Source: Chitinophagales bacterium (lineage in GTDB: Bacteria > Bacteroidota > Bacteroidia > Chitinophagales > LD1). From it: a stretch of DNA of 64,000 nt. The DNA lies in assembly GCA_046329515.1 (NCBI GenBank), contig JAXLUM010000001.1:1854329-1918328 (forward strand), read 5' to 3'. The position numbers were made by a program, and so were the translations under genes. Within the stretch, counting starts at the first letter, position 1. Each line of letters starts with the position of its first letter. The notes below the pieces were generated by a model. The model made no database searches, was not told the DNA's origin, and saw only the letters and a program-made list of their open reading frames with translations. Positions 278-40,952 of the stretch are shown piece by piece.

Positions 278-490
278 AAACACAAATTTACCCGCCTCTT
301 TGCTAATAATAAGGTAAGTATCGCCTAATCTATCTACACCGGCCTGTTAGGATTCCCTAAAACGAAGCAAATAATTATGTTTGTAAGATGTGGAAAGCAG
401 GGGTTGTTAAATGCAACTATGGGCACTCCTTTTTCCTCTTTAGTTTAGATTTAATGTTGTAACCGAGATTTTTTCTATTTTCAGATTTTG

Positions 491-3400
491 ATGAAGAAAA
501 ATTACCCCCTGATGCGTTCACTATTAGTGACCTTGTGCTGTTGCCTTGCTTTATTTTCCGAAGCTCAAATTACATGCAGCGTTAGCCTGCAACAAAATTC
601 ACCTTGTGCCCCTAAGCCAATATTGGCCCAGGCTACAGCCAGTTCCGTTTCCCCTATTACCCAATATTGCTGGCGTTTAACCAACTGCGCTACCGGCACT
701 GTTATTTTCCAAAGTTGCGGACCCAACCCCAGCTTTGCATATGTAAACTCAGTAGTGGGCAATTTATGCCTGCGCATGACTGTGTTTAATTCTGCCGGCG
801 ACTCATGTGTGCAAACCATAAATAACATCCTTGTTTCGGGCTCGCCTACCATTGACATGGGAATAAGCAATACGGAAGGATGTTGCGGTTTGAATGTGCA
901 GATGCAATGTAATATTACACCCGGTTGCGGCGCAATAGATTCACTGGTTATACAACCGGGTTGCGGCCCAATTATTTTCCTGAATAGCTGCCCTTCAGGT
1001 ATAATTAATATTCCTTACAACTGCTCCTGCCCTCCGGGCGTCTATGATGTAACCGTAGTTGCAAAAAACTCCTGCGGTTGTTATGCACAGCCTAAAACAT
1101 ATGCTGATACCGTTCACATTATACCTAAACCGGTTGCTTTTTTTACGGCAGATACTACTACGGCCCACTGTGCCAGCGGCCCGTTAAACGTAAACTTTAT
1201 GGCCAACAATGCCGGCCCTAATATGACCTATAAGTGGTATATTGACGGTGCCTTACAGCAAAGTTCAACGGCACCCGCAGGTTTAAACTTTACCCATTCC
1301 TTTCCAATATCAGCAAACTGTTATGATGTTAAACTTGTAGTGGTACATGCTTCGGGTGGAGGCTGTATTGATTCAATGGTAATAAGTGACCTGATATGCA
1401 ATACCAGCACGCCCAGCATTAATATAAGCAGCAACGTAAATACTACCTGTGTTAACAGCAGCACCCCGGCCACTATAACCTTAACTGACAATACCGGTGG
1501 CGGACCACACACTGTAACCTGGGCCATGCCAGCACCGCTGGGCACCCAAACGGGGCCTACTGCCACTTATACCACTACGGCTACAGGCACCTACACCGTG
1601 ACCGTTAATGCTTCTTATGGAGGCAACTGCTCTGCTACCTTAACGCAGGTAGTTACTACTTTAAATGCCAAACCCGTATCTAACTTTACAGTAAGTGATG
1701 ATTCGATCTGTAAACTGCCAGCATCAGTAACAGCAACAGCAACTCCTTGTGTAGGCTGTTCCTACGGGTGGAATTTTTCCGGCATAACTCCTCAGCCACC
1801 CAATAGTTCTACTGCAACTGTTTCTTACACCAATAATGGCACTTTCAATATATCATTGGTTACAACAGCGGCCAACGGTTGCGCCACCACCATTATTAAA
1901 AATAATGCGGTTGTAATACGCAGACTTGGTGCGAGAATTGGGATGAACGGCTCCTACGGCTGTCCTCCTAAATGTGTAACGTTTACGAACCAAACACCGG
2001 CGTTTCCGGGTGAGACTGTTTTACCGACCAACGTTTGCTGGAGTTTTCCGGGATCGGGTATTGCAGGGCAATGCAACAATACCATAAACCAATGCTTTGT
2101 GCAGCCCAGCTGCTATGATGTGCAGTTAGCAGTAACCACCGTTAGCGGTTGTACGGATACCGTAAAGCTTATTGACACAGTGTGTGTGCATGGCCCTCCG
2201 GTTTGCTCGGTTATTGCCGACCCTGATACCATGTGCTATGAAGCGGATTCAGTAGCGTTTACAATAATGTGCGATTCAGCAAACCTTATACACGCTATTT
2301 ATGGTGATGCCGGTGAAGACTGGGCGCATCCTACTGCCGGCGTTCCTTTTACGTTAGTTCATATGTACCTTGATTTTGGCAGCTTTAATGCCATGATAAT
2401 TACATACAGGGACAGTTGCCTGGGCGACACTTTTGTTATTCCAATTACAGTTTTCCCTCCTGCTGCTAAGTTTAAAGATTCAACAAGTTGTTCATTAGGC
2501 GATAGTATAATATTAGTGAACGAATCGAAATATGCTAACCGATGGACATGGTCGCTTTGTAACGGAGATACTATAGGCAGCGCAACCGGCCCTAAGAGCC
2601 CTAAAGTAAAAGTTGCTTTATGCGATACTTGTACTATTTCTCTCACTGCCTATAATGATACCACGGGCTGCGTCCATCAATATACCGAAACCATTAATAC
2701 GCCTTGCGACTCTGTATCCATATCCCCTTCCGATACTACTTATTGCGGCGGATTTATAACCTTGTTCAATACTTCGCCCGACCAGGTATCAAATCTCACT
2801 CAATGGGACCTACAAGGCTCTAATGCCATCTCCTGGTCACCCATTAAAGGGCCAAGCTACTCCTATAACCTTTTAAATCCGGGGTATTATAATCTTGCCA
2901 TGTTGAATACTACATCCGGTGGATGTAAGGATACCGCCTTTGCCAATGTACACGTATGTAAAATAACGCCGAACTTTGGGCCAACGAATGTTTGTTTGCC
3001 TGATTCGTTCTACTTCGTTGACTTAAGTAAAGATTCAACCTGCGGAGTTACGCATTGGAACTGGACCTTTGGCGATGGCAGCCCTGCTGACACTACATCA
3101 GCTCCGGTGCATGGTTATGCTAACTCCGGTACATACCAGGTACAATTAACTGTTCGTAATGATTTTGGTTGCCAGGCTTCTGTAACAAAGTCGGTAGTAG
3201 TAGGTGGTTATGTAAACTTCGACTACCAGGTTGATACTACAGTTTGCCCGGGACCTAACAGTACTGTTTGTGTTACCAATAATACCAGTAGTCCGGGTGT
3301 TACTTTAACATGGCAATGGACGGCGCAGACTCCTGCCGGCACCATCGTATCTAACCAAGCCGCCCCGTGTTTCGGCCCATATAATACAGCGGGTGATTAC

Positions 3401-6352
3401 CCCGTATACATGTTGATGCAAAGCGCTACTTGTACCAGACGTGATACGTTTAATATACATGCTCATTACCCTATCGCTGCCGGCTATATTGATATTGACA
3501 CTGTAGATTGCCCTAATCCTCCGGTGATTATAACCTTTACTGACACCTCACTTTATAAAGATGGTCTTGCCAGTTGGAATTTTGGCGGACAAGGGGTAGC
3601 CAATTTTGATGTTGCCACCTTCTTCTTTTCGGACCCGGGTAATTATATAATTACAAATACAGTGACAACCAATGAAGGCTGCGTTAACACAGCTATTATT
3701 GATACGGTTGTAGTATTAGGTCCTTACGGTAATGCTTCGTATTCACCACCGGGTATTTGTTCGTGCAAAGAGAATGTAGATTACGTTATTAACTCGGTTT
3801 ATGCGGATACTGTAACGCTCATTTTCGGCTGTAACACGGGCTTTATTGCTACGCCTATAGCAGTACCGGGTAGCCCGGCGAACCCTGCAGTAACCAATCT
3901 TAGTGTTCCTTATTGCATTACAGATACCTGCCAGCCGCAACTTATTTATGCTGACGCCTCAGGTTGCCGCGTTTTTCAAGATTTGCCTTACATACCGGTT
4001 GATAGCCCTGTTATAAAATACTTCTTTGATAACTACGGCGTTTGTGTTCAGGGTACGGTTTGTTTCCGCGATTCAACCAAATACAAACTTGGCCCTAACT
4101 TCTCGTGGACCACACAACTTTTATGGGACTTTGGTGATGCCTTAGCTTCACCGGCTAATCCTAACACTGATACTGTAGCCAATCCATGTCACTATTTTAG
4201 TCAACCTGGTGGTTATACGGTTAAGCTATATATATGGAGTAATTTAGGCTGCATGGACTCATTGGTTAGCACCATTGTGGTAATACCTGAGTTTCCCATT
4301 GCCAACTATACGCAGGACGATACACTGGTTTGTGCCTACTCTCCTGCATGCTTCCACGATTCATCATGGATATATCCGCTTACAGGTGCTGACTACTGGG
4401 TATGGTGCTGGGGAGATGGAACACCATGCGATACAATTCATGGAATTCCTGATGCCTGTCACATTTATACAACAGGAGGCAGCTACAACGTAACAATGTG
4501 GGTAGTAGATAGCGTAGGCTGCGGCGATTCGATTGGTTATCGACACATTACCGTGGTAGACAACCCTATTGCCAGCGCCGGTGGCGACCAAACTATTTGT
4601 TATGGTGTTACCACTCAACTTAATGGCAGCGGCACATCCAATTGTCAATGGAGCCCTCCGGGATTAGTATCGGACCCTAATATTTGTAACCCTACCATTA
4701 CACTAACACAGAATGACTCGGTAACGTTGATAGTAACCGACCAATACGGATGTGCGGATACAACAACCACACACTTTACTGTGGCGCGGGTTACGGCAGA
4801 CTTTACTGTAGGGTCTACCTTCTGTTCAGATGATTCGGTTTGCGTAACGGACGCTTCTACCAATATTAATGGTGTAATAAATGTTTGGCGTTACGACTAC
4901 GGCGATAACTCTGCATTCCTTTACGGGCAAAATGTTTGTCACAATTATTTTGCGGCAGGCCCCGGCACTTACAATATTGAATTGTTTGTAAGTGATACTA
5001 CCGGTTGTGTGGATTCTATAAGCAAACCGGTTACTATATTGCCTAGCCCGATAGCTAACTTCTCGCTTAACGATACCGTAATTTGCAGCGACCAAACTAT
5101 TTGTATTACGGACCTTACCACCAGCCAGGCGCCAATTAACAGCTGGCAGTGGTACTATGGCGATTTCCCGAATACCCCGGTAAATGGAGCCAGCCCTCCT
5201 TGCCACCAGTATGCCGCTCCGTTACAAAACAATTACACTATAGCTTTAATAGTAACCGACCAAAACAATTGTGCTGATACCGCAAGTATTGTGGTCACAG
5301 TTAATGAGGTGCCGCAGGCAGATTTTAGCTGGGTTACCAGTTGCGAAACGCAACCTATGCCGTTAACCAGCCTTTCTACACCGGGCGACGGTGCTATTAA
5401 CTACTGCGAGTGGACCTTATGGCAAGGCGCTCCTAACCCCGTAATTGATAATAACTGCAATACCTCATTCCAATTCCCTCCGGGACAGTTCCCTGTGCAG
5501 TTTATTGTAAGAGATGTGAATGGATGTGCTGATACAATAGTCAAAACCGTATTTGTGGATTCGGTTTCTCAACTGGTAATTTACCCGGGCGACACCACTA
5601 TATGCGCAGGCACATCTGTTGACTATAATGTGAGCGGTGTATTTGACCAGGTGGTTTGGACGCCAAACGTTTGGTTAAGCGACCCGAACAGCTCAACTGT
5701 TACCGTTAACCCGTTAAGTAACATAAGCTACATTATTAATGCTGTAAACGGCGTTTGTGCTGCAGCTTCTGATACGTTTAGCATACGTGTAATACAACCT
5801 ATACCAATTGAAGTATTTGCAACACCTGAACAAATTGTGTTGGGCTTAACCTCGAATTTAACTTCGCAAATACCGGGTGATATTGACAGCATTATATGGA
5901 CACCGGAAGAAACACTGGACTGCCGCGATTGTCCTAACCCTATTGCGTTGCCAATTGCAACTACCACTTATACCGCCACCATTTACTACAGTGAAAACGG
6001 TGTAACCTGCACCAACAGCGCTTCAGTAACTATTACGGTGCTTAACAACTGCGATGATAAGATTGTATACGTGCCTAACACCTTTACCCCTAACGGTGAT
6101 GGCATTAACGATATATTCATGATACGCGGTTTAGCGGCCACCAAAATCAACTACTTCCGCATATTTGACCGTTGGGGCCACCTGGTATATGAAGCCCATG
6201 GCGGTGCGCCAAACGAGCCTAAATGGGGCTGGGATGGCACAGATGTGGATGGCAAGAAACTTAATAACGCCGTTTTCGTTTACACCTATGAGATAGAGTG
6301 TATTAACGGAGATGTGGTACATGGACAAGGTAATGTTACACTAGTAAGATAG
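491..6352 (+). CDS. Giant secreted adhesin-like protein with a signal peptide, a Cys-rich N-terminal region, many PKD/Ig-like repeats and a T9SS type-B (gliding-motility CHU_C-type) C-terminal sorting domain
   Basis: The ORF is 1954 aa. The track start at 488 is TTG; there is an ATG at 491. PKD signatures recur (WNWTFGDGSPADTTSAPVHGYANSGTYQVQLTVRNDFGC; WDFGDA; YDYGDNS; WYYGD). The C-terminus KIVYVPNTFTPNGDGINDIFMIRG...FRIFDRWGHLVYE...WDGT...AVFVY fits the type-B T9SS CTD family. Confidence 0.9.
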   Translation: MKKNYPLMRSLLVTLCCCLALFSEAQITCSVSLQQNSPCAPKPILAQATASSVSPITQYCWRLTNCATGTVIFQSCGPNPSFAYVNSVVGNLCLRMTVFNSAGDSCVQTINNILVSGSPTIDMGISNTEGCCGLNVQMQCNITPGCGAIDSLVIQPGCGPIIFLNSCPSGIINIPYNCSCPPGVYDVTVVAKNSCGCYAQPKTYADTVHIIPKPVAFFTADTTTAHCASGPLNVNFMANNAGPNMTYKWYIDGALQQSSTAPAGLNFTHSFPISANCYDVKLVVVHASGGGCIDSMVISDLICNTSTPSINISSNVNTTCVNSSTPATITLTDNTGGGPHTVTWAMPAPLGTQTGPTATYTTTATGTYTVTVNASYGGNCSATLTQVVTTLNAKPVSNFTVSDDSICKLPASVTATATPCVGCSYGWNFSGITPQPPNSSTATVSYTNNGTFNISLVTTAANGCATTIIKNNAVVIRRLGARIGMNGSYGCPPKCVTFTNQTPAFPGETVLPTNVCWSFPGSGIAGQCNNTINQCFVQPSCYDVQLAVTTVSGCTDTVKLIDTVCVHGPPVCSVIADPDTMCYEADSVAFTIMCDSANLIHAIYGDAGEDWAHPTAGVPFTLVHMYLDFGSFNAMIITYRDSCLGDTFVIPITVFPPAAKFKDSTSCSLGDSIILVNESKYANRWTWSLCNGDTIGSATGPKSPKVKVALCDTCTISLTAYNDTTGCVHQYTETINTPCDSVSISPSDTTYCGGFITLFNTSPDQVSNLTQWDLQGSNAISWSPIKGPSYSYNLLNPGYYNLAMLNTTSGGCKDTAFANVHVCKITPNFGPTNVCLPDSFYFVDLSKDSTCGVTHWNWTFGDGSPADTTSAPVHGYANSGTYQVQLTVRNDFGCQASVTKSVVVGGYVNFDYQVDTTVCPGPNSTVCVTNNTSSPGVTLTWQWTAQTPAGTIVSNQAAPCFGPYNTAGDYPVYMLMQSATCTRRDTFNIHAHYPIAAGYIDIDTVDCPNPPVIITFTDTSLYKDGLASWNFGGQGVANFDVATFFFSDPGNYIITNTVTTNEGCVNTAIIDTVVVLGPYGNASYSPPGICSCKENVDYVINSVYADTVTLIFGCNTGFIATPIAVPGSPANPAVTNLSVPYCITDTCQPQLIYADASGCRVFQDLPYIPVDSPVIKYFFDNYGVCVQGTVCFRDSTKYKLGPNFSWTTQLLWDFGDALASPANPNTDTVANPCHYFSQPGGYTVKLYIWSNLGCMDSLVSTIVVIPEFPIANYTQDDTLVCAYSPACFHDSSWIYPLTGADYWVWCWGDGTPCDTIHGIPDACHIYTTGGSYNVTMWVVDSVGCGDSIGYRHITVVDNPIASAGGDQTICYGVTTQLNGSGTSNCQWSPPGLVSDPNICNPTITLTQNDSVTLIVTDQYGCADTTTTHFTVARVTADFTVGSTFCSDDSVCVTDASTNINGVINVWRYDYGDNSAFLYGQNVCHNYFAAGPGTYNIELFVSDTTGCVDSISKPVTILPSPIANFSLNDTVICSDQTICITDLTTSQAPINSWQWYYGDFPNTPVNGASPPCHQYAAPLQNNYTIALIVTDQNNCADTASIVVTVNEVPQADFSWVTSCETQPMPLTSLSTPGDGAINYCEWTLWQGAPNPVIDNNCNTSFQFPPGQFPVQFIVRDVNGCADTIVKTVFVDSVSQLVIYPGDTTICAGTSVDYNVSGVFDQVVWTPNVWLSDPNSSTVTVNPLSNISYIINAVNGVCAAASDTFSIRVIQPIPIEVFATPEQIVLGLTSNLTSQIPGDIDSIIWTPEETLDCRDCPNPIALPIATTTYTATIYYSENGVTCTNSASVTITVLNNCDDKIVYVPNTFTPNGDGINDIFMIRGLAATKINYFRIFDRWGHLVYEAHGGAPNEPKWGWDGTDVDGKKLNNAVFVYTYEIECINGDVVHGQGNVTLVR

Positions 6353-6363
6353 AAGGAGGAACT

Positions 6364-7422
6364 ATGGCAAAAAATTTACTAAAATCCGTTTTTGTAACTG
6401 TAGTTATGGCCTTGCTGGCTTTGCAGGGTATTGCACAGGATATTCACTTCTCGCAGTATTACGCATCGCCTATGCAGCTAAACCCTGCATTAGCGGGTAT
6501 GAACAATTGCGACTATCGTATTTACGCCAACTTTCGCACCCAGTGGGTTACGGTTTCAACCGGTAATACCTATAGAACCGTTGCAGGCGGCGCTGATATG
6601 AGCATCGGCAAAGTAACCAAGTATAACAGCTTTGCAGGTTTGGGCATCTCTTTCTTTAGCGACCAGGCGGGCGATCTTAACTTCAACACTAACCGAATAG
6701 ACCTTTCATTTGCTTACCACTTTATGCTAAACCGTAAAGGAACTATGCAGATTTCTACCGGTATACAGGGCGCGTTTAACTACAACAGCATCAATCCTTC
6801 TAAGGCAACCTTTGATTCGCAATACGACCCTACAACAGGTATTGCTGACCCTAACGGGCAAAAAGAAAGCTTTGCCAAAACGCGTGTAATGTTCGGCGAT
6901 GCAGGCTTTGGCCTTTTGTATAGCGCCATAGTTAAGCAGCAAACCAATTTCTTTTTAGGTTTTGCCCTTAACCACCTTAACCAGCCTAAAATGTCGTTTC
7001 AACCTAATGGAACAACCAATGACGGCAGCGGTTTTGAGCGTTTGTACATGAAGATTACAATACATGGTGGAGCATCTTTACCTGTAGGTAAGCGCTTAGC
7101 TATACAGCCGCACTTTTTGGCGTTGGTACAGGGGCCTTCTTACCAGTTTAACTTAGGCTGTAACTTTAAAACCACTTTAGGAAACGTTACTACCAGCAGA
7201 ACAGCCTTGCACCTTGGTGTGCAATACCGCGGCTTGCTTGATGCAGTTGTGTTAAGCACCCGTATTGATGTAAAAGGTTTTGGCGCCGGTTTAAGCTATG
7301 ACATTAACGTATCTAAACTGACACCGGCCTCTCATTCAGTAGGTGCGCCTGAAGTTTCTATTATGTATCAGGGATGCGCCCGCAAGAAGCCTCATCCGGG
7401 GCACTGCCCTGCTTTGTTCTAA
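6364..7422 (+). CDS. PorP/SprF family type IX secretion system outer-membrane protein
   Basis: The 352-aa product has a signal peptide and the hallmark N-terminal motif QDIHFSQYYASPMQLNPALAG. The gene starts 11 nt after the type-B cargo gene and is preceded by AAGGAGGA. Confidence 0.9.
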   Translation: MAKNLLKSVFVTVVMALLALQGIAQDIHFSQYYASPMQLNPALAGMNNCDYRIYANFRTQWVTVSTGNTYRTVAGGADMSIGKVTKYNSFAGLGISFFSDQAGDLNFNTNRIDLSFAYHFMLNRKGTMQISTGIQGAFNYNSINPSKATFDSQYDPTTGIADPNGQKESFAKTRVMFGDAGFGLLYSAIVKQQTNFFLGFALNHLNQPKMSFQPNGTTNDGSGFERLYMKITIHGGASLPVGKRLAIQPHFLALVQGPSYQFNLGCNFKTTLGNVTTSRTALHLGVQYRGLLDAVVLSTRIDVKGFGAGLSYDINVSKLTPASHSVGAPEVSIMYQGCARKKPHPGHCPALF

Positions 7423-7510: not shown

Positions 7511-8218
7511 TTACAGCCACAAATGGTAGTAATATTGCTTATGGATAACATTAAATCCAAGCGCTTTGTAAAAAGCCATTGCACCACGGTTATCTTCCTG
7601 CGTGGATACCGTACATTTACTGTATCCATTTTGCGCTAAGTGATGTAGGCTATGGTGGATAAGAGCCCTACCTATTCCTTTAACCTGCTGTTTTTTGTTG
7701 GTTGCGATTAAGCTTATGGAAGGCGTCCCGTCCTTTATAGTAACGGAAATAAAACCCGCAAATTCAATTCCGATGTGGCAAACCCATACGAAGGTATTGG
7801 CCTCATCGGCGGTTTCCTTTTCTATCCAGCGTCGATACAACGCTTCAAAAGAGCCAACTGGAAAATTATTATCCAATTTGAACCGCGAAAACCCGCCGGC
7901 AATCAAGGCAAGTTCGTATAGTCTGGGGTCAACATTACCTGTATAACGACTTATATGCGAAGAAGGTTGAAATAAACTGGAGGAGGTATCAATGCTTAGT
8001 GTAACCTTCACATCGATAGGGGAAAGCCCTTGTAAGGTGTTAAGTGAGCCAATATCATCGTCTTCAACAACGATGTAAGCAAGTTCAATTTCATTCTGCC
8101 TTAACTCGGTTTGGAGCTGTACAAACTCAACATTAGTTAGCCCTTTGGGGTCTACCCTGGAAATGTTCAGTTGAAAAAAATCAGTATCCCACTGTTGTAT
8201 GGCAGCTGTGTAACTCAA
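7511..8218 (-). CDS. wecD: TDP-4-amino-4,6-dideoxyhexose N-acetyltransferase (WecD/RffC-like GNAT)
   Basis: The 235-aa product has an N-terminal QQWDTDFFQLNISRV. The central FSRFKLDNNFPVGSFEALYRRWIEKE and C-terminal STQEDNRGAMAFYKALGF resemble E. coli WecD (LTWENAFFG; SRFRAPWY...FYAQWIENA; ATQVGNTAALKRYIQSGA) as I recall it. The TTG start overlaps the stop of the upstream GT2 gene (TTGA at 8215-8218). Confidence 0.7.
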   Translation of the reverse strand: MSYTAAIQQWDTDFFQLNISRVDPKGLTNVEFVQLQTELRQNEIELAYIVVEDDDIGSLNTLQGLSPIDVKVTLSIDTSSSLFQPSSHISRYTGNVDPRLYELALIAGGFSRFKLDNNFPVGSFEALYRRWIEKETADEANTFVWVCHIGIEFAGFISVTIKDGTPSISLIATNKKQQVKGIGRALIHHSLHHLAQNGYSKCTVSTQEDNRGAMAFYKALGFNVIHKQYYYHLWL

Positions 8219-9165
8219 TTTGTATTCAGTGTTTTATGAACAATGAAATTGGGGCGATCCTTTACACCTTCAAAAATCTTAGCTATGTAAAGCCCTAGCA
8301 CGCCTAACATCGTTATAATCGTGCCTCCAATAAACCATATAGAAAAAATAAGGCTAGCATATCCTAAAACCTCAGTAGTACCCAAAATCCACCGCATAAT
8401 AATGTAGATTCCGAACATCAACGAAAAGAGAGAAATATACAAGCCTATTTTAACTGTTAAGCGCAGGGGTTTATCGGAGTTGGCAAGTATAATATTAAGC
8501 GCCAGTTGTAACAGCTTCGAAAAGTTGTAAGAAGTTTCACCTTCAAAACGTTCGCCATGCTCAATATCTACTGCAGTATGGGTAAAACCTACCCAGTTTA
8601 TCATAGCAGGAAAGTAGCGGATGTGTTCGGGTAATTTTATTATTTCATCAATTACTTGGCGGTGATAGACTCCAAAATTGGCTACCGTTCTATCAAATGT
8701 TGTTCCCGAAAGACTTGAAAGGAAAACGTGAAAAAGCTCCGAAGTTTTCCGCTTAAAAAAAGTATCCTTTCTGTTATGCCTTCGGCCGCGTACTATTTCA
8801 TAACCTTCCAAGGCTTTGGCATACATTAAGGGAATCTGGTCAGGCCTGTCCTGCAAATCGCAGTCCATTACTATTACCCATTCACCGGCAGTAAAGGTAA
8901 GCCCAGCTGAAATGGCATAATGCTGTCCGAAATTCCGGCTTAGTTTTACCCCCTTTACTTTCGGATTTTGCTTGCAAACTGCATCTATTTTCTGCCAAGT
9001 TTTATCAGGGCTACCATCTTCCACCAAAATAATTTCATATTTTTCGGTTAGTCGCGAAACCGACTCTTCAATCCGGAGCACAAGTTCCTCTACTATCAGT
9101 TCTGCCCGGTAAACGGGAGAAACAACACTTAACAAAGGCTTCTGTTTAAAACGACTTTCACCCAT
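8215..9165 (-). CDS. GT2 family polyprenyl-phosphate glycosyltransferase (GtrB/ArnC/DPM1-like)
   Basis: GT2 motifs are present: LLSVVSPVYRAE, ILVEDGSPD and the DxD-type VMDCDLQD. Two C-terminal TM helices (LRLTVKIGLYISLFSLMFGIYIIM; ASLIFSIWFIGGTIITMLGVLGLYIA) are typical of lipid-carrier-charging GT2 enzymes. The track start at 9183 is TTG, so I prefer the ATG at 9165. Confidence 0.8.
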   Translation of the reverse strand: MGESRFKQKPLLSVVSPVYRAELIVEELVLRIEESVSRLTEKYEIILVEDGSPDKTWQKIDAVCKQNPKVKGVKLSRNFGQHYAISAGLTFTAGEWVIVMDCDLQDRPDQIPLMYAKALEGYEIVRGRRHNRKDTFFKRKTSELFHVFLSSLSGTTFDRTVANFGVYHRQVIDEIIKLPEHIRYFPAMINWVGFTHTAVDIEHGERFEGETSYNFSKLLQLALNIILANSDKPLRLTVKIGLYISLFSLMFGIYIIMRWILGTTEVLGYASLIFSIWFIGGTIITMLGVLGLYIAKIFEGVKDRPNFIVHKTLNTN

Positions 9166-9418
9166 GAAATCTGGCAGTATCAATAATATGTCCCAATAGT
9201 TGTTTGAAATTAAGGCTGTGATTGATGTTTTTCAGACATTGAAATTTAAGCTGCAATATACCATTTAAAGGAAGAATAACAAGACTCTGCTTGTGGAGAA
9301 AGATGCTAAGGAATTGTAAATGACAACTTATGTTTTATTAATAGAGCCGTTTTGATAATTTTACACATTAAATTTTGAAGAACAGAGGGAGCCTTATTTG
9401 CCCCTAACCTCAGGCTGA

Positions 9419-10570
9419 ATGTATATACCATTTAACAAACCCTTTATTTCGGGCAGGGAACTTGAATTTATATTGGAGGCCGTTAATTCCGGTAAAATTT
9501 CCGGGGACGGAATGTTTACCCGCAAGTGCCACGAGTTTTTTCAGACCAACTATGGTCTCAACAAATGCCTGCTAACTACTTCGTGTACGGATGCATTAGA
9601 AATGGCCGCGATACTAACAAAAATTCAGGAAGGTGATGAAGTAATAATGCCGTCCTACACTTTCGTTTCTACTGCAAATGCATTTAGATTGCGGGGTGCC
9701 AAAATTATTTTTGCTGATAGCCGGAAAGACCACCCGGGGGTTGATGAAGACCAAATTGAAAGCCTTATTACAACCAGAACAAAGGCTATTGTGCCGGTAC
9801 ATTATGCTGGAGTAGCCTGTCAAATGGATAGGATAACAGCATTGGCTAAAAAATACAGTCTGTTTGTAGTGGAAGATGCAGCACAAGCAATTGATTCATA
9901 CTACACGGGTGCAGACGGTAAAAAAAAGGCATTGGGCTCTATTGGTGATTTAGGTGCTTTTTCCTTTCACGAAACGAAGAATGTGATTGCCGGAGAAGGT
10001 GGAATGCTTGCTGTAAATAATAAAGAGTTTGCAGAAAGAAGTGAAATAATCCGGGAAAAAGGAACGAACCGTTCAGCCTTTTTTAGAGGAGAAGTAGATA
10101 AATATGGATGGGTGGATATTGGTAGCTCTTACCTACCATCAGATATAATTGCAGCGTTTTTATACGCGCAATTAGAGAACCTACAACTCATTCAGGAAAG
10201 AAGAAAACAGATATGGGAACTGTATTGGAAGCGTTTGAATCCACTGCAGAATGCTGGGAAAGTGAAGTTGCCCGTTATTCCGGATTACGCCACCAACAAT
10301 GCGCATATGTTCTACTTGGTACTAAACAGCCTCAAGGACAGAACCGGATTGATAGAAGCACTGAAGAAGTATGATATACATGCAGTGTTCCATTATGTTT
10401 CGCTTCATAAAAGCAGCTACTATGTGCAAGGTAAAGAAGCGCAACCCTTGCCCATGGTGGAATTGTATAGCGACCGCTTGTTGCGTCTACCTCTTTTCTT
10501 TGATCTGACGGATGAGCAGGTGAATATGATATCGGATATGATAATAAACTACTTCGGCTTACCTGCTTAG
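9419..10570 (+). CDS. wecE: dTDP-4-amino-4,6-dideoxyhexose (Fuc4N/Qui4N-type) PLP aminotransferase, DegT/WecE family
   Basis: The N-terminus of the 383-aa product, IPFNKPFISGRELEFILEAVNSGKISGDGMFTRKCHEFF...LLTTSCTDALEMAAIL...GDEVIMPSYTFVSTANAF.LRGAKI.F.D, tracks E. coli WecE closely as I recall it. The PLP-lysine motif SFHETKN is present. Confidence 0.85.
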   Translation: MYIPFNKPFISGRELEFILEAVNSGKISGDGMFTRKCHEFFQTNYGLNKCLLTTSCTDALEMAAILTKIQEGDEVIMPSYTFVSTANAFRLRGAKIIFADSRKDHPGVDEDQIESLITTRTKAIVPVHYAGVACQMDRITALAKKYSLFVVEDAAQAIDSYYTGADGKKKALGSIGDLGAFSFHETKNVIAGEGGMLAVNNKEFAERSEIIREKGTNRSAFFRGEVDKYGWVDIGSSYLPSDIIAAFLYAQLENLQLIQERRKQIWELYWKRLNPLQNAGKVKLPVIPDYATNNAHMFYLVLNSLKDRTGLIEALKKYDIHAVFHYVSLHKSSYYVQGKEAQPLPMVELYSDRLLRLPLFFDLTDEQVNMISDMIINYFGLPA

Positions 10571-10591
10571 CCGCCGAACCATGCCAGCAAA

Positions 10592-12133
10592 ATGAAAGAG
10601 AATAAGTGGTTCATAACTATATCCTGGATTGGTGTTTGCACATTATGTACAGCCCTATATACTCTGTTTTTCATCCATACCTTTTACCACGACCGATACA
10701 TAAGCCTCAGTGGCGATGCGGAACAATATGTTGGTTCTGCTGAAAAGCTATATACTAATTTTGAATACTCCTTTTACCGTACGGATGACATGAACTTTCG
10801 TTCGAACAAGATGATAGGTAAGCCTATTGATAAAGGAATATACTACGCTTATCGTACGCCCGGCTATTTGTTCATTTATATGCCTTTGCGTTTTTTGCTC
10901 AACCAAACAAGCACCTTGTATGCCATACTTGTACTACAAGTTCTTGCTGTTTCCATAAGCAAGTACCTGCTCGCCAGAATTTCGCAGAAAATTGCAGGCG
11001 GGACTATTTTCGCATTTCTGACAGTTATGCTCTGTCTGAATGTAATGCCGCAGTTTCATTACTTGTTGATGAGTTTTTTGACAGAACCTTGGGCCATATC
11101 GTTCCTCGTATTTTCAATGGCCTGCTTATTTCTTGTAAAGGAAGAAAAACTAAGCAGCCCAACGATTCTTCTTATAAGTGGCTTTTTTATGATGATAGCC
11201 GTTATGCTTCGGCCTTTTCTCGTTTTCTTCCCTTTGTTTTTATTGGTATGGTTATTCTTTAAGGGAGTAAAAAAAATGTCAATACTCGTGCTGTTTGTAT
11301 TGCCGATCCTATTCGTTGATACTATTTGGTCTGCCCGTAACCTGATTACTGCAGGGGAGTTTATTCCTTTATCTAAAACATTGCAGATTTTTGATTACAG
11401 TCACGAAGGGTTTAATGCGCAACGTGATTTATGCAAAGACCTAGGCACTTCAACGGAATGGTGGAAGCCTGAATCGTTAATATATTGGTTTCATCACCCC
11501 GAGGATGGACGACCGGCCTCTGAAGTTCTGCCTGAAAAATTTCTTGCTGTAAAAGAGAACAGAAGATTGATGGTAGATGCTAAAGCAGCATATACTTTAT
11601 CCAACGATACAAGTGTAAACCTTGAAGAGCGCATACGATTTGAGAAAGAATCGGCCCGGTTAATTAAGATAGCGAATAACCAATTCAAAACAACATACCC
11701 TTTAGACGCCAGTGTTAAAAGCAGACTTACTGTTTTAAAAACCTTTATAGAGATGCCATTGGTAAAACCCTTGATTGGGTTTCGTTACCCCATAAATGTG
11801 CTTACAGTGTTTGCAGAGGCTTTCCTGTATTGGTTTGTAGTGTTAGGCGGATTTATGGCCATATTATTTTACGTTTTTGTAAAACGCAGTGCCGAGGGGA
11901 TGATACTAAGCTTCTTACCTATGTTTATGCTTATACTGTTTGCCTTTGTAATCCGCTTGTGCGAACATAGGGAGCTTTTCATTCCGCATTTTCTGCTTGC
12001 TGCATTAGCCTCTGCGTATGTTGGCAGTGTTTTTAGCATGAAAAAGCTAGAACAAAAATTGGTATGGATAATACCATTTATACCGATTTTATTACTGGCG
12101 GGGTATACAACCAAACGTTCCATCGTTTGGTAA
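10592..12133 (+). CDS. Polytopic membrane protein, probable GT-C fold glycosyltransferase (PMT_2/ArnT-like)
   Basis: The 513-aa product has about 11-13 hydrophobic helices by eye. The first loop motif SGDAEQYVGSAEKLY resembles the acidic D-x-x-x-Y loop of GT39/GT83-type enzymes. It starts 21 nt downstream of wecE. The CDS call is solid; the fold assignment is an inference. Confidence 0.6.
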   Translation: MKENKWFITISWIGVCTLCTALYTLFFIHTFYHDRYISLSGDAEQYVGSAEKLYTNFEYSFYRTDDMNFRSNKMIGKPIDKGIYYAYRTPGYLFIYMPLRFLLNQTSTLYAILVLQVLAVSISKYLLARISQKIAGGTIFAFLTVMLCLNVMPQFHYLLMSFLTEPWAISFLVFSMACLFLVKEEKLSSPTILLISGFFMMIAVMLRPFLVFFPLFLLVWLFFKGVKKMSILVLFVLPILFVDTIWSARNLITAGEFIPLSKTLQIFDYSHEGFNAQRDLCKDLGTSTEWWKPESLIYWFHHPEDGRPASEVLPEKFLAVKENRRLMVDAKAAYTLSNDTSVNLEERIRFEKESARLIKIANNQFKTTYPLDASVKSRLTVLKTFIEMPLVKPLIGFRYPINVLTVFAEAFLYWFVVLGGFMAILFYVFVKRSAEGMILSFLPMFMLILFAFVIRLCEHRELFIPHFLLAALASAYVGSVFSMKKLEQKLVWIIPFIPILLLAGYTTKRSIVW

Positions 12134-12136
12134 ATT

Positions 12137-13201
12137 TTACTTCTTCAGCAACCAGAAGGTAGGATCTTCTTGTTGAGCGTCTTCCAGGCGACGTTGAGCT
12201 TCGTAAAAATGATTGCCTACCGAGTAGCCAATCTTTGTAAGGCGTGCGCCTTTTTCACGGAAGATGATGGAATCAGGAAAGCGCTGTTGCAAACGTTCAA
12301 CAGCTGCATCTATATTTTGGTCCTCACGGAAGGCACCTATAATTACATAGTACGTATGTCCGTTGCCTGAAGTAATTACCGGTTGTTCAACCACCGGATT
12401 TTCTTTCACCTCAACTTCCTCCTTAACGGCCGGCACATTGTTGTCGGCAGTTAAAGTTGGATCTGGTGTTAATGGTAAGGTATCGGTTGAAGTATTGGAC
12501 GTTTCAGTAAACGTATCTTCTGATACTACCTCCTGCTTCTGCTCGACCGGCATAGGATGAAACTCCGGTTCCGGAGTTTTAAAAATGCTGCTTATGGTAT
12601 TGTAGATACCTGCTTCATCTAAGCGCAAGGCTTTTACTTCAACACCCGCCCACATTAGCTGGCCGATAGCCGCCATAGCTATAAGTATTACAATAACGGC
12701 AGCCACCCTCCATTGCTTGCGGCCCGAAACCTGTTTCTTGGTTTCCTGGGTAAACTTTTCGGTAAAGTCTATTTGTTTGCCGCGCAAAACAGGTTCGGCA
12801 ACAATAGTGCGTAAACCATAAGCGGCTTTCAGGTAGTTGGTGGCTTCATCCTGCTGAAACTGCAGATTGCCTTCTATATCAGCATGCAACTTGCCTACGC
12901 GGGCAATGTTTATCTCCTCATTATTGCGCAACAGGGTTTTAGCAGAGCTTACCCAATCGCTTACCAATGAAGAGGCAGTATCAAGGGTCATTTTGCCCTT
13001 TGCTGAGATGTAATTAACCAGCAAGCCATCGTTGGTTTGCAGGTTGCGGTTAAAGGTTATGGCCTTAGTAGGTGGCTGAATAGTATGCAGGATAGGGTGA
13101 ATATCGGCGCTCTTATAATTGCATACCAATCCTCCAAAACCGGGGATGATGATGCAATCGTGCTCAAAGAGCATTTCACTTATGTAAACCGATATATCCA
13201 T
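12137..13201 (-). CDS. HU-CCDC81-like / SPOR domain membrane protein
   Basis: The N-terminal HU-like region contains IIIPGFGGLVCNYKSA and ARVGKLHADIEGNLQFQ. One TM helix (WRVAAVIVILIAMAAIGQLMWAG) is followed by a Pro/Thr/Glu-rich linker and a C-terminal SPOR-like YYVIIGAFREDQNIDAAVERLQ...YSVGNHFYEAQRRLE. The track start at 13210 is TTG; there is an ATG at 13201. Confidence 0.75.
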   Translation of the reverse strand: MDISVYISEMLFEHDCIIIPGFGGLVCNYKSADIHPILHTIQPPTKAITFNRNLQTNDGLLVNYISAKGKMTLDTASSLVSDWVSSAKTLLRNNEEINIARVGKLHADIEGNLQFQQDEATNYLKAAYGLRTIVAEPVLRGKQIDFTEKFTQETKKQVSGRKQWRVAAVIVILIAMAAIGQLMWAGVEVKALRLDEAGIYNTISSIFKTPEPEFHPMPVEQKQEVVSEDTFTETSNTSTDTLPLTPDPTLTADNNVPAVKEEVEVKENPVVEQPVITSGNGHTYYVIIGAFREDQNIDAAVERLQQRFPDSIIFREKGARLTKIGYSVGNHFYEAQRRLEDAQQEDPTFWLLKK

Positions 13202-13405
13202 TTGGAACAACTTTACTCCCCTTGCATGCGAAAAACCGATATGTTCTTCGCTTCACTTATTTACGCAGTGGGGTGCTTTAAGTGTCGAGCGCAAAATAGA
13301 ATTTTTAGGACGCTTAGCTTAACATAGTTAGAAGATTGTGGATAAAAATTGGATAAGTGAAATTTCGGTGAAAGCCATAAATTTCCGCAGTTAAAAATTG
13401 AGCTA

Positions 13406-38274: not shown

Positions 38275-40179
38275 ATGGGCTTTTTAAAAATGCTGGTTAA
38301 GCGCATACTGTTGCTGATGGGTTTCTTTCAGTTAAGCAGGCTATTGTTTCTTGCCTTTAACTTCAGTTTGTTTCCGCACTTAACGCCCGCCGGCTACCTG
38401 CATATACTTTGGGGCAGTTTCCGCTTTGATATTTCCACCATTGTGTATGTAAATGTCTTATACATTTTCCTCTTCCTATTGCCTTTCAATTTCCGCTTTA
38501 ATAAAGCCTATCAAACCTTCGCTAAGCTTATTTTTATAACAGGCGCTGCGGTTTGCCTGTTTGCTGATATAGCAGACATGGCCTACTACCCTTTTTTGCT
38601 ACACCGCACTAATGCTGCTTTCTTTTTAGAGTTTAAGCATGATACCAACCTACTAACCGATGCAGGAAAGTTTGTATGGAGTTATTGGTATTTGGCTTTT
38701 CTGTTTGCCGGATTGCTATGGCTGCTTATACGCAGCTACAACTGGATAAAGATGCCCGTTGCCGAAGAATACAACCGGAAGAAACTGTGGCTGGATGCCG
38801 CCGCTATACCCTTTGTAGCCTTACTATGGTTAGGATTTGCCCGTGGTAGTTTTGTGCCCAGCAACCGGCCCCTTAACCTTAGTTATGCCGGGTTCTACGT
38901 GCGCAGTCCGGAGGAGGCCAACCTTGTAGTAAATACCCCTTTTAGCATAATGACCACCTTTGGTAACATTAAAGTGCACGAGGCTACTTACTATACATCC
39001 TTTGAGGAAGCAGCAAAATACTACCAGCCCATACAAAGCTATGCGCATGAGCCGGGAACAGAGAAGCGCAAAAATGTTGTAATAATTATAGTAGAAAGTT
39101 TAAGCCGCGAATTTGTTGGTGGGTTAAATGAAAAGAAGGATGGCTATGAAGGCTACACTCCTTTTCTTGATTCATTGCTGAAGCAAAGTATGACCTTTAA
39201 ATACAGCTACGCCAATGGACGCAGAAGTATTGAAGCTCTGCCAACCGTTGTAGCAAGTATACCTTCGTTTACTGAAGCGTATACTCTAACCCCCTATACC
39301 ACCAATACAGTCAATTCATTGCCGCTTGTTTTAAAACGGTATGGCTATAATACCAGCTTTTTTCATGGTGCACACGAGGGAAGCATGGGCTTTGCGGCCT
39401 TTATGACCATAGCAGGGGTTGATAAAAACTACAGTAAAAACGAATACGGCAACGAAAAAGATTTTGACGGCACCTGGGGCATTTACGATGAGGAGTTTTT
39501 GCAATACTGGGCGCAACAGATGAATACATTTAAAGAACCTTTTTACAGTTCGGTATTCACGGTTTCATCCCATCACCCTTTTGCTTTGCCTGAGCGGTAT
39601 AAAAACAGTTTTAAAGCCGGCACTTTGGCTATACACCCAAGTGTGCAGTATACTGACATGGCCATTCGCCGCTTTTTTGAAACAGCAAGCAAAATGCCCT
39701 GGTATAAAAACACCGTATTTGTAATTACAGCGGACCATGCTGCTGCACTTAGCTATTACCAGAATTACCAAAACCCTGTGCAGTCATTTGCCGTGCCCAT
39801 CCTCTTCTTTACGCCCGATTCAAGCCTTAGCGGTTTTAAAAACTACACCATTCAGCAGGCTGATATTTTTCCAACCCTGGTAGACTACCTTGGCCTTAAT
39901 GATACCATACTTGCTTTTGGTAAAAGTGCATTACGCGATACAACAGAGGGCTTTGTGGTAAACTGCTACGCCGGTATTTACCAGGCATATTATAAAGATT
40001 TTGCGCTGCAGTTTGATGGCAATAAGGCTTTAGCGCTATATAAGTTTAAAGAAGATACCCGCCTGCAAAACAACCTGCTGGGCCAATACCCTGATGAAGA
40101 GAAACTGATACTGGCAAAGCTGAAAGCTTACATACAACAGTATAACAACCGTGTACGCAACAATAAAATGTTACCTTAA
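38275..40179 (+). CDS. LTA synthase family sulfatase-domain membrane protein (phosphoglycerol/phosphoethanolamine transferase-like)
   Basis: The 634-aa product has N-terminal TM helices and a sulfatase domain (VVIIIVESLSREF; VFVITADHA). Confidence 0.85.
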   Translation: MGFLKMLVKRILLLMGFFQLSRLLFLAFNFSLFPHLTPAGYLHILWGSFRFDISTIVYVNVLYIFLFLLPFNFRFNKAYQTFAKLIFITGAAVCLFADIADMAYYPFLLHRTNAAFFLEFKHDTNLLTDAGKFVWSYWYLAFLFAGLLWLLIRSYNWIKMPVAEEYNRKKLWLDAAAIPFVALLWLGFARGSFVPSNRPLNLSYAGFYVRSPEEANLVVNTPFSIMTTFGNIKVHEATYYTSFEEAAKYYQPIQSYAHEPGTEKRKNVVIIIVESLSREFVGGLNEKKDGYEGYTPFLDSLLKQSMTFKYSYANGRRSIEALPTVVASIPSFTEAYTLTPYTTNTVNSLPLVLKRYGYNTSFFHGAHEGSMGFAAFMTIAGVDKNYSKNEYGNEKDFDGTWGIYDEEFLQYWAQQMNTFKEPFYSSVFTVSSHHPFALPERYKNSFKAGTLAIHPSVQYTDMAIRRFFETASKMPWYKNTVFVITADHAAALSYYQNYQNPVQSFAVPILFFTPDSSLSGFKNYTIQQADIFPTLVDYLGLNDTILAFGKSALRDTTEGFVVNCYAGIYQAYYKDFALQFDGNKALALYKFKEDTRLQNNLLGQYPDEEKLILAKLKAYIQQYNNRVRNNKMLP

Positions 40180-40184: not shown

Positions 40185-40952
40185 ATGATAATTACAGGCA
40201 TTATACCCGCACGCTATGCAAGCAGCCGTTTCCCCGGTAAGCCGTTGGTAGATATTAAGGGTAAGAGTATGATACGCCGCGTTTACGAGCAGGCAAAAAA
40301 GGCAACGCTTTTAAGCGATGTTATCATAGCTACAGATGACCAGCGCATTTACGATGAGGTAAACAGCTTTGGCGGCAAGGTGGTAATGACAAGCCCTATA
40401 CATGTAAACGGCACTGAACGCTGCGCAGAAGTTGCCGCCGCCTGCAATGCAGACGTAATTATAAATATACAGGGTGATGAGCCCTTTATTGAGCCCGAAC
40501 AAATTGATGCACTGGGCAGGTGTTTCGAAAATGCAGAAACACAAATTGCTACTTTAATAAAGGAACACCCGCTGAATGAAGAGTTGCAAAACCCTGCACG
40601 TATAAAAGTGGTAGTAGATAAAAGCTTACGGGCGTTGTATTTCAGCCGCAACGTAATACCGCACCAAAGGGCGCAACCGCAGGTGCATGTAGGTGGCTTT
40701 GGCCATACCCATAACCCACAAACTAGCCCAAGCACCTCAGCCGTTTACTACAAGCATATTGGGCTGTATGCCTACCGTAAAGAGGTTTTGTTAGAATTGG
40801 TAAAACTGGCCCCTACCCCATTAGAAATGGCAGAAAGCCTTGAGCAACTGCGCTGGCTGGAGAACGGTTACCGCATACAATGCGCGCTTACCACGCACGA
40901 AAGTATTTCTATTGATACGCCGGAGGATTTGGCCCTATTTATTAAGCACTAA
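40185..40952 (+). CDS. kdsB: 3-deoxy-manno-octulosonate cytidylyltransferase (CMP-Kdo synthetase)
   Basis: The motifs IIPARYASSRFPGKPL, INIQGDEPF and LEQLRWLENGY are present. Confidence 0.9.
   Translation: MIITGIIPARYASSRFPGKPLVDIKGKSMIRRVYEQAKKATLLSDVIIATDDQRIYDEVNSFGGKVVMTSPIHVNGTERCAEVAAACNADVIINIQGDEPFIEPEQIDALGRCFENAETQIATLIKEHPLNEELQNPARIKVVVDKSLRALYFSRNVIPHQRAQPQVHVGGFGHTHNPQTSPSTSAVYYKHIGLYAYRKEVLLELVKLAPTPLEMAESLEQLRWLENGYRIQCALTTHESISIDTPEDLALFIKH

Follow-up and report, generated by a model that had tools for sequence, protein, structure and literature searches.

A WecE-containing four-gene module in a Chitinophagales bacterium predicted to add an acetamido-dideoxyhexose outside the cytoplasm

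We analysed a four-gene module in a 64-kb stretch of contig JAXLUM010000001.1, which belongs to a metagenome-assembled genome of a Chitinophagales bacterium; this whole stretch is called the window below. The module encodes an aminotransferase, an acetyltransferase, a GT2 glycosyltransferase and a 513-aa membrane protein, arranged as two divergent two-gene units. It likely represents a three-component (Gtr-type) extracytoplasmic glycosylation system, and we put the probability of this overall pathway logic at about 0.7. The sugar that it delivers is probably 4-acetamido-4,6-dideoxygalactose (Fuc4NAc), and the odds that the acceptor is a polysaccharide are close to even or slightly below. An earlier model-generated reading of the same DNA (the original prediction) had proposed such a route by analogy with the Arn and Gtr systems. 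Our open reading frame (ORF) calls agree with its coordinates for the four genes:

7511..8218, minus strand: two-domain WecD-like GNAT N-acetyltransferase (235 aa, TTG start)
8215..9165, minus strand: GtrB/ArnC/PgfS-type GT2 (ATG start at 9165 preferred; alternative TTG at 9183)
9166..9418, no strand: divergent intergenic region (253 bp; presumed promoters of both two-gene units)
9419..10570, plus strand: WecE aminotransferase, pyridoxal phosphate-dependent, DegT family (383 aa)
10592..12133, plus strand: predicted GT-C-fold membrane glycosyltransferase (513 aa, 11 transmembrane (TM) helices)
12110..12131, plus strand: terminator-like hairpin over the GT-C stop codon (8-bp stem and AAATTTTACT tail; weak)

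Family and fold of the module proteins

Homology scores lay between E = 1e-58 and 1e-169, far past chance. The aminotransferase scored above the equivalog cutoffs of the NCBIfam models PRK11706 (562 bits, cutoff 375) and TIGR02379 (522 bits, cutoff 435). It was 55% identical to E. coli K-12 WecE and matched the structure of that enzyme (4PIW) at E = 2e-127 in a PDB search. Against the ArnB model it reached 222 bits with a cutoff of 631, and it is thus not an ArnB equivalog. The WecE-like call of the original prediction was well founded, and homology identifies the protein as a true WecE, a dTDP-4-keto-6-deoxy-D-glucose 4-aminotransferase. Sequence alone cannot decide between a galacto and a gluco product.

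The acetyltransferase matched Pfam Acetyltransf_1 (E = 3.6e-14). Its best NCBIfam match was the WecD model PRK10975, aligned over the full length at 57 bits (cutoff 219), and it scored 33 bits against TIGR02382 (cutoff 195). A BLASTP alignment with E. coli WecD covered both domains at 25% identity (E = 2e-7). Compared with solved structures, the protein matched RimI-like GNATs, and WecD was not among the matches. The sole non-self homolog was P0155, encoded in one of the related loci described below (L010), which is 33% identical to the window protein and a clearer WecD relative, matching WecD itself at E = 5e-16 and reaching 96 bits with the WecD model. The predicted WecD-like acetyltransferase is thus a GNAT of the WecD type, but only distantly so. 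It is a remote homolog of WecD, the dTDP-Fuc4N acetyltransferase, rather than an equivalog, and is the weakest of our enzyme calls.

Full-length alignments of the GT2 with solved structures were strongest for GtrB (5EKP, E = 1.2e-58) and ArnC (E = 5e-48), with Dol-P-Man synthase weaker. Sequence identity was 33% with E. coli YfdH/GtrB and 31% with ArnC. Among NCBIfam models, PgfS gave the best match (219 bits), followed by ArnC (187 bits, cutoff 529), both below their equivalog cutoffs; no GtrB-specific NCBIfam model was among the matches. Two C-terminal TM helices were predicted, as originally proposed, at ~238-256 and 266-295, so that a catalytic domain of the GT-A fold is followed by a TM hairpin. 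The proposal that this GT2 is a Gtr/Arn-type polyprenyl-phosphate glycosyltransferase therefore stands on the GtrB and ArnC alignments; these make the class certain and leave the donor uncertain.

The 513-aa protein carries the locus tag U0V74_07190 and had no Pfam match of its own at E ≤ 0.01. A word-indexed database contained four close relatives, of which P0004 (34% identity) carries PMT_2 (PF13231). An exhaustive profile search recovered 3,204 cluster representatives at E ≤ 1e-3, of which 192 reached E ≤ 1e-30. When 84 relatives were scanned against Pfam (E ≤ 0.01), 32 matched PMT_2 and 11 the Alg9-like GT22 family, and no other family recurred. Depending on the query, PDB searches with the sequence or its profile returned ATPase noise, nothing, or a marginal match to ALG9 (E = 0.033). 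Scans of genome contigs for GT-C relatives found none. Membership of the 513-aa protein in the PMT_2/GT-C clan is therefore assigned only by transitivity of its relatives and by fold.

An AlphaFold2 model built on a 132-sequence alignment reached a pLDDT of 95.2 and a pTM of 0.94; it replaced a model from a 5-sequence alignment (pLDDT 49.5), which was discarded. The top 15 Foldseek matches in the PDB were all GT-C enzymes (probability 0.93-1.00, TM-scores 0.31-0.48), and they included archaeal AglB, the STT3 subunit of oligosaccharyltransferase complexes, PglB, ALG9, Pmt4, ALG3 and PimE. The model has 11 TM helices with the N-terminus inside, and its short loops carry nine Lys and Arg residues inside against two outside, which satisfies the positive-inside rule. 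The first periplasmic loop (residues 32-104) carries a near-invariant D42, and a helical periplasmic domain of ~145 residues (255-400) lies between TM7 and TM8. The near-invariant polar residues D42, Y46, R88, E165, R207, R249, N250, E458 and R460 are all on the periplasmic face. D42 and Y46 fall within a GD[AS]xxY motif just after TM1, and R88-x-P90-G91, R207-P208 and W246 are also conserved. As modelled, these residues are what a GT-C site for a polyprenyl-phosphate sugar should look like.

It is extremely improbable that the 513-aa protein is not a glycosyltransferase and works instead as a Wzy-like polymerase, a WaaL-like ligase, a flippase or a transporter. The protein has no Pfam domain and, with no flippase encoded nearby, it could fill that role. 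However, its leading fold matches are all GT-C, its relatives match PMT_2 and GT22, and the Asp of loop 1 together with the periplasmic Arg and Glu residues is consistent with GT-C catalysis. No Wzy or WaaL appeared among the 50 listed Foldseek matches, and transporters (major facilitator superfamily and others) reached a probability of at most 0.15 and a TM-score of at most 0.18. The GT-C-like protein of the original prediction is thus supported by both fold and the Pfam matches of relatives.

We also compared the 132-sequence family profile with known periplasmic transferases. The hhalign probability was 0.3% for E. coli ArnT (E = 0.21) and 0.2% for YfdI/GtrS, and membership in the ArnT (GT83) or GtrC families was rejected. 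The ArnT alignment pairs GDAEQY with PDETRY of ArnT, which is a resemblance at the motif level only. Of the families against which the original prediction suggested comparison, PMT_2 is thus linked through relatives, whereas ArnT and GtrC are not significantly related. We suggest that the 513-aa protein is a GT-C-fold enzyme of an unclassified family.

Gene boundaries within the module agreed with the original prediction. The TTG start of the GNAT gene overlaps the stop codon of the GT2 gene (AAT TGA / TTG AGT, ATTGA), giving the TTGA overlap it had noted, and 21 nt (10571-10591) separate the WecE gene from the 513-aa ORF. The predicted 253-bp divergent region is exact when the GT2 begins at ATG 9165; a mechanical ORF call starts the GT2 at TTG 9183 and shortens the spacer to 235 bp. 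We prefer the ATG, since alignments to GtrB, ArnC and the L010 GT2 begin at residue ~12 of this version. The TTG start of the GNAT is credible because the first internal Met occurs only at residue 213 and the N-terminal WDTDFF aligns with the N-termini of the L010 GNAT and E. coli WecD.

Gene linkage in related loci

Linkage was surveyed at 12 loci of GT-C relatives with 24-36% identity to the 513-aa protein, obtained by contig look-ups and one metagenome scan. A TM-anchored GT2 of ~280-320 aa was encoded near the GT-C protein at 11 of these, a DegT-family aminotransferase at nine and an N-acyltransferase at eight. At L013/14, no polyprenyl-phosphate glycosyltransferase was found within 8.9 kb. 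The neighbouring GT2s were homologous to the window GT2 over their full length where tested, and had C-terminal TM helices wherever sequence was available. The co-occurrence that the original prediction asked about is therefore repeated in unrelated metagenomic loci.

Sugar-tailoring genes differed among the loci. L001 (FdtA, an LbH acetyltransferase and DegT) and L003 (FdtA and DegT) are of the 3-amino-3,6-dideoxyhexose type. L002, L007, L015 and the P0009 locus combine a 4,6-dehydratase/epimerase-family gene with DegT and a PglD-like acetyltransferase and are bacillosamine-like. WecE-type chemistry was found in the window, L008 and L016. The co-directional genes of L008 encode, in order, a haloacid dehalogenase (HAD) hydrolase, a GT2, a NeuD/PglB/VioB-family acetyltransferase (172 bits, above cutoff), a WecE that is 64% identical to the window WecE (562 bits), the GT-C protein, a second GT2 and a GT4. 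L016 has the order WecE (63% identical to the window WecE, 548 bits), ATP-grasp, GT2, a 609-aa membrane protein, VioB-like acetyltransferase, GT-C, GT4, GT4, Wzt and Wzm. The set of 4-aminotransferase, N-acetyltransferase, polyprenyl-phosphate glycosyltransferase and GT-C thus occurs three times, with a non-orthologous acetyltransferase. This recurrence with replacement of the acetyltransferase suggests functional coupling rather than shared ancestry of the block.

Three loci contained candidate flippases. In L010, a GT2 gene (51% protein identity with the window GT2) and the GNAT gene after it have the same 4-nt stop/start overlap; the next gene encodes an EamA protein of 111 aa, for which ArnE and ArnF are the top NCBIfam models. 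L019 is a complete operon of a GT2, two EamA/SMR-like proteins of the drug/metabolite transporter (DMT) type with four TM helices each (109 and 112 aa), and a GT-C; the 109-aa protein is 37% identical to the L010 EamA protein (E = 8e-12). L006 has a Wzx-like protein in place of EamA. Neither L006 nor L019 has aminosugar genes.

The linkage bears on whether the two pairs of genes in the module work together at all. It is highly improbable that the WecE and GNAT proteins feed an ordinary cytoplasmic transferase elsewhere (for enterobacterial common antigen (ECA) or an O-unit), with the GT2 and GT-C using a UDP-Glc/GlcNAc-type donor. To our knowledge, all biochemically characterised GtrB-type enzymes use UDP-sugars, which would fit such a loose association, as would the position of the gene pairs on opposite strands and the GT2 and GT-C without aminosugar genes in L006 and L019. 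Conversely, the acetyltransferase is coupled to the GT2 and not to WecE, a coupling kept in L010, and WecE lies only 21 nt upstream of the GT-C gene. An aminotransferase, acyltransferase, GT2 and GT-C also occur together in eight to nine of the 12 loci, across FdtA-, WecE- and 4,6-dehydratase-type chemistries, and no homolog of WecF, the cytoplasmic Fuc4NAc transferase, was found in the window.

In four of the loci (L001, L007, L014 and L016), genes for a Wzm/Wzt ABC transporter lie on the flanks of the module. By its own terms, the original prediction would fail if the four genes belonged, in related genomes, to a larger conventional O-antigen/ECA cluster. Such clusters are literally present at these four loci, but the pairing of polyprenyl-phosphate glycosyltransferase and GT-C is kept there. 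Since Wzm/Wzt clusters retain both the GT2 and the GT-C, we conclude that they refine the target and do not refute a Gtr-style mechanism.

Several loci have additional genes near the GT-C. A protein encoded upstream of the GT2-GNAT-EamA genes of L010 (2-6061) is ~28% identical to the PF01522 (NodB/ArnD-family) deacetylase of L001, and it is one possibility that some systems de-N-acetylate the lipid-linked sugar as in Arn. An FUT8-like protein and a GT10 fucosyltransferase are also encoded upstream in L010, and a helix-turn-helix (HTH)/HipA toxin-antitoxin pair downstream. HTTM/DCC1-like thiol-disulfide oxidoreductase membrane proteins lie near the GT-C in L007 (538 aa, within 4384-6268) and L016 (484 aa, 252-1706); in L007 a 98-aa protein with three TM helices and no family match precedes it. 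The HAD hydrolase gene lies directly upstream of the polyprenyl-phosphate glycosyltransferase gene in L007 (2013-2654) and L008 (2-331), forming a HAD-GT2-LbH acetyltransferase block, and has no counterpart in the window. A second GT-C-like protein accompanies the family GT-C in L015 (480 aa, 11 TM helices, within 7940-10392) and L006 (8496-9869, a 457-aa PMT_2 protein). L002 has a truncated GT-C paralog (3-866), and L015 also has a second TM-anchored GT2. The paired GT-C-like genes suggest multi-sugar or multi-site decoration systems.

Predicted pathway and acceptor

Our analysis shows to which families and folds the enzymes belong, how the GT-C lies in the membrane and which genes are repeatedly linked; from this we infer the substrates, stereochemistry, lipid intermediate, flippase and acceptor of the following pathway. 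WecE would aminate dTDP-4-keto-6-deoxy-D-glucose, supplied by RmlA and RmlB encoded outside the window, to a dTDP-4-amino-4,6-dideoxyhexose, more likely the galacto form (Fuc4N). The WecD-like GNAT would then N-acetylate this product to dTDP-Fuc4NAc. Our preference for Fuc4NAc rather than Qui4NAc rests on two points: the aminotransferase scores as a WecE equivalog, and its partner is WecD-like. The translationally coupled GT2 would load undecaprenyl phosphate (Und-P) at the cytoplasmic face, giving Und-P-Fuc4NAc. A flippase encoded elsewhere, probably a small ArnE/F-like DMT protein such as those of L010 and L019, would move this lipid to the periplasmic leaflet. There, the periplasmic site of the GT-C (D42 in loop 1, E165, R207, R249, N250, E458 and R460) would transfer the single sugar to its acceptor. 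The likeliest acceptor would be a completed, O-antigen-like polysaccharide that depends on an ABC transporter, with the sugar as a side branch or cap; the Wzm/Wzt context of the relatives makes this our best guess, with Klebsiella gmlABC and Citrobacter youngae (PMC11127046) and Xanthomonas wxc region 3 as parallels.

The module can be compared component by component with three-component systems. It has a GtrB-type GT2 with a TM hairpin and a GT-C with an acidic residue in loop 1, for which catalysis is predicted. A dedicated, linked flippase is missing from the 64-kb window and present in the relatives L019, L006 and L010. There is a precedent for an unlinked flippase, as the flippase-less csbB/yfhO operon uses an unlinked GtcA (PMC7389260). 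We searched the window by tblastn with E. coli RmlA, RmlB, WzxE, WzyE, WecF, WecA, GtrA and ArnA/D/E/F, and scanned its other ORFs against Pfam. None of these E. coli queries matched the 64-kb window with an E-value under 0.2, and its small ORFs with several TM helices were limited to NuoK and NuoA. The original prediction was therefore correct that the window has no flippase, rmlA/rmlB, wzx or wzy gene.

A number of points weigh against our reading. The WecD assignment is weak (57 bits against 219, with WecD absent among the structure matches), and the GT2 falls below the equivalog cutoff of every characterised polyprenyl-phosphate glycosyltransferase, so that donor specificity is not readable. 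We know of no GtrB-type enzyme that has been biochemically characterised as acting on a dTDP-sugar. TM-scores of the GT-C model to solved GT-C enzymes are modest, and the family has no significant profile relationship to ArnT or GtrC. No flippase, rmlAB or acceptor-pathway gene lies within the 64-kb window. Finally, the sampled loci are few, come from metagenomes, were picked by their similarity rank and are not independent of one another in phylogeny.

The closest described system is region 3 of the Xanthomonas campestris wxc cluster (wxcK-wxcL-wxcM-wxcN-wxcO), which places FucNAc side branches on a rhamnan O-antigen (PMC4878081). Region 3 mutants lose only the side branch, and the backbone made by the ABC-transporter route persists (PMC4878081; PMC13133917). 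The role of WxcO is still called 'unclear' (PMC13133917). Like the window, region 3 combines an N-acetyl-amino-6-deoxyhexose derived from dTDP-4-keto-6-deoxyglucose with aminotransferase and acetyltransferase genes beside a GT2 (WxcL) and membrane proteins. L001 and L003, both with FdtA, DegT, GT2 and GT-C, look like direct wxc analogues, L001 having an LbH acetyltransferase within a Wzm/Wzt cluster. In contrast, the window has the 4-aminotransferase WecE and a GNAT and no FdtA-type 3,4-ketoisomerase, and should therefore make the 4-acetamido isomer. It also has no WxcN-like small membrane protein, and it stands alone instead of inside an O-antigen cluster.

Three-component systems have been described as Gtr, Klebsiella gml and Citrobacter youngae systems (PMC11127046). 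In GtrA/B/C of Shigella and Salmonella phages, as in YfdGHI of E. coli CPS-53, a GtrB-type GT2 likewise makes an Und-P-monosaccharide with which a GT-C decorates a finished polysaccharide (PMC11127046). Klebsiella gmlABC shows that the mechanism also works on ABC-transporter-dependent O-antigens (PMC11127046). The window differs from Gtr in its predicted donor, a dTDP-derived acetamido-dideoxyhexose rather than UDP-Glc or UDP-Gal, and in its own sugar-tailoring genes. It has no GtrA, its GT-C is unrelated in sequence to YfdI/GtrS, and it is not phage- or plasmid-borne. The pentofuranose system of C. youngae ORF12-15 (GT136) is a precedent for unusual donors and for orphan GT-C proteins that found new CAZy families (PMC11127046). 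Gram-positive CsbB/YfhO, GacI/GacL and PgfS/PgfM are precedents for a flippase that is unlinked or of another family (GtcA, PMC7389260) and for protein acceptors (PMC12041528). The C. youngae and Gram-positive systems differ from the window in their donors (pentofuranose derived from phosphoribosyl pyrophosphate, GlcNAc, GalNAc), their GT-C families (GT136, YfhO) and their flippases (MATE, GtcA, Wzx-like).

The Fuc4NAc pathway of ECA and O-antigens (RffH-RffG-WecE-WecD-WecF) shares with the window an orthologous WecE, a distant WecD homolog and the same predicted dTDP-Fuc4NAc. In ECA synthesis, WecF adds Fuc4NAc in the cytoplasm to a repeat unit linked to undecaprenyl pyrophosphate, which WzxE flips and WzyE polymerises. 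Unlike that pathway, the window has no homologs of WecF, WzxE and WzyE, and a polyprenyl-phosphate glycosyltransferase and a GT-C are present instead. Since tblastn found none of these three proteins in the window, membership in an ECA assembly pathway was rejected.

The Arn pathway resembles the module in the 4-transamination of a nucleotide keto-sugar, N-acylation, an ArnC-type GT2 acting on Und-P, flipping by small DMT proteins (as in L010 and L019) and a GT-C. N-acylation precedes lipid loading in Arn as well. The predicted module differs in using dTDP rather than UDP, a 6-deoxyhexose rather than a pentose and an acetyl rather than a formyl group. It has no ArnD-type deacylase and hence no cationic product, its GT-C is not of the ArnT family, and its acceptor is likely a polysaccharide. 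Membership in the Arn pathway was rejected, as the ArnT, ArnB and ArnC comparisons failed and ArnA and ArnD homologs were not found in the window. Of the two precedents invoked by the original prediction, Gtr thus fits, while Arn is weakened by the missing formyl and deacylase steps, the neutral sugar and the GT-C.

It is very unlikely that the GT-C acts in the manner of ArnT, FlmK or LgmC on a lipid A phosphate or the inner core, changing surface charge or resistance to antimicrobial peptides. Such a role would be consistent with the Arn-like architecture (aminotransferase, N-acylation, ArnC-like GT2 and GT-C), the ArnE/F-like flippase candidates of L010 and L019, the alignment of GDAEQY with the loop-1 PDETRY of ArnT, the PF01522-type deacetylases (ArnD family) of L010 and L001, and EptA/LtaS-like and KdsB-like genes 26-28 kb away in the window. 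However, the hhalign probability for ArnT is only 0.3%, and the ArnB and ArnC equivalog cutoffs are missed widely. With no deacylase in the window, the sugar would stay N-acetylated and neutral, without benefit to charge, and the relatives lie in O-polysaccharide-type clusters.

Proteins are another conceivable acceptor. In this alternative, the GT-C would work like Pgf or a protein O-mannosyltransferase (PMT) and move the sugar from the same lipid-linked donor to Ser/Thr-rich periplasmic, outer-membrane or type IX secretion system (T9SS)-secreted proteins, which we judge distinctly unlikely. PMT_2, matched by 32 of the 84 GT-C relatives, is a protein O-mannosyltransferase family, although ArnT-like lipid and glycan transferases also fall under it. 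The periplasmic domain between TM7 and TM8 occupies what we take to be the position of the MIR domain in PMTs. PgfS is the best NCBIfam match of the GT2 at 219 bits, yet the GT2 resembles PgfS no more than GtrB or ArnC. Together with GT-C enzymes, PgfS O-glycosylates Ser/Thr-rich regions in S. mutans (PMC12041528). The module has no neighbouring polysaccharide genes and adjoins a 1954-aa T9SS cargo protein and PorP/SprF, but these T9SS genes are convergent to the module and not operonic with it. Related loci also lie inside Wzm/Wzt and GT4/GT2 polysaccharide clusters.

We consider it unlikely, too, that this stand-alone module without a flippase decorates a target other than O-antigen, for example lipid A/core or surface proteins related to the T9SS. 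According to this reading, the 513-aa protein belongs to an uncharacterised GT-C family specialised for the periplasmic addition of N-acyl-amino-6-deoxyhexoses. Donors would be Fuc3NAc-, Fuc4NAc/Qui4NAc- and bacillosamine-type sugars on polyprenyl-monophosphate, derived from dTDP- or UDP-sugars, and the ~190 representatives at E ≤ 1e-30 would be a potential new CAZy family. Our preferred reading is the Gtr-type decoration of a completed polysaccharide with Fuc4NAc.

Genomic surroundings and significance

The window outside the module is largely housekeeping: a nuo operon, pyruvate carboxylase, a KdsB-like gene, valyl-tRNA synthetase and T9SS cargo proteins. The G+C content of the module is ~0.40 against 0.44-0.45 in both flanks (4-5 points lower), which is typical of horizontally exchanged glycan loci. 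Searches of phages and plasmids for GT-C relatives gave no match, and a mobile seroconversion cassette of the Gtr kind is therefore disfavoured. The 253-bp region presumably holds a promoter for each two-gene unit; scans for sigma-70-type and Bacteroidota (-33 TTG / -7 TAnnTTTG) promoters found nothing above chance. The hairpin at 12110..12131 possibly marks the 3' end of the plus-strand unit; it is weak evidence, as the total of terminator-like sites in the region did not exceed the shuffled expectation.

The module adjoins T9SS genes on one side. The cargo protein of 1954 aa (488-6352, plus strand) is rich in PKD domains and carries a CHU_C type IX secretion signal. It is followed by PorP/SprF (6364-7422, plus strand), which is convergent with the GNAT gene across an 88-bp gap. 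Since the genes are convergent with this gap, and the neighbourhood recurs in no related locus, a functional link between the module and the T9SS cargo or PorP/SprF was rejected. Two more T9SS cargo proteins (40935-44168 and 54468-55676, both minus strand) combine a Por_Secre_tail with BNR/YCF48-like repeats. Just downstream of the GT-C gene and convergent with it, 12137-13210 (minus strand) encodes a protein with a single TM segment, HU-CCDC81_bac_1/2 domains and a SPOR domain, the last of which binds peptidoglycan. This gene has no evident link to the module.

Further away, a 634-aa protein (38275-40179, plus strand) has five N-terminal TM helices and a Sulfatase domain (PF00884), an EptA/LtaS-type architecture, and could be a lipid A/core phosphoethanolamine transferase. 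Directly 3' of it lies a KdsB-like CMP-Kdo synthetase gene (CTP_transf_3; 40185-40952, plus strand). An AAA_25/DnaB_C-like ATPase with a C-terminal HTH (49514-50530, plus strand) and, after it, a fusion of an N6/N4 DNA methylase with an Mrr_cat/NA-iREase1 nuclease-like domain (51326-52957, plus strand) lie in a local G+C dip (0.419) and look like a small mobile or defence islet.

The original prediction had stated that WecE/WecD chemistry was unreported as the donor of an Arn/Gtr-type system, and this holds within the searchable literature. Full-text searches did not link Fuc4NAc, Qui4NAc or viosamine to GtrB/GT-C systems, although an earlier bioinformatic mention is possible. For E. coli, mention of D-Fuc4NAc was limited to its being a rare side-branch sugar. 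Among described cases, Xanthomonas wxc region 3 with its 3-acetamido isomer comes closest, and it is a 3-amino precedent. New here would be the predicted donor chemistry and the unclassified GT-C family, within an otherwise established paradigm. The more valuable outcome, in our view, is the pattern at family level, in which amino-6-deoxyhexose tailoring genes constantly accompany one GT-C clade.

Periplasmic glycosylation by three-component systems is a driver of antigenic diversification and of resistance to phages and antimicrobial peptides. The donors documented for it are, in essence, Glc, Gal, GlcNAc, GalNAc, Ara4N, GalN, GalA, Man and pentofuranoses. If our reading is true, dTDP-derived acetamido-dideoxyhexoses would join them, and GtrB-type enzymes would be able to use dTDP-sugars. 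E. coli makes dTDP-Fuc4NAc for ECA, and the components, the GT2 above all, could serve glycoengineering. If the module instead decorates a target other than O-antigen, Bacteroidota would gain a previously unknown single-sugar envelope modification. The GT-C family itself is sizeable and unclassified, and its linkage to aminosugar tailoring genes would be a readable signature of specificity. This would provide a rule for predicting Fuc4NAc, Qui4NAc and Fuc3NAc side branches from sequence in uncultured Bacteroidota and other bacteria.

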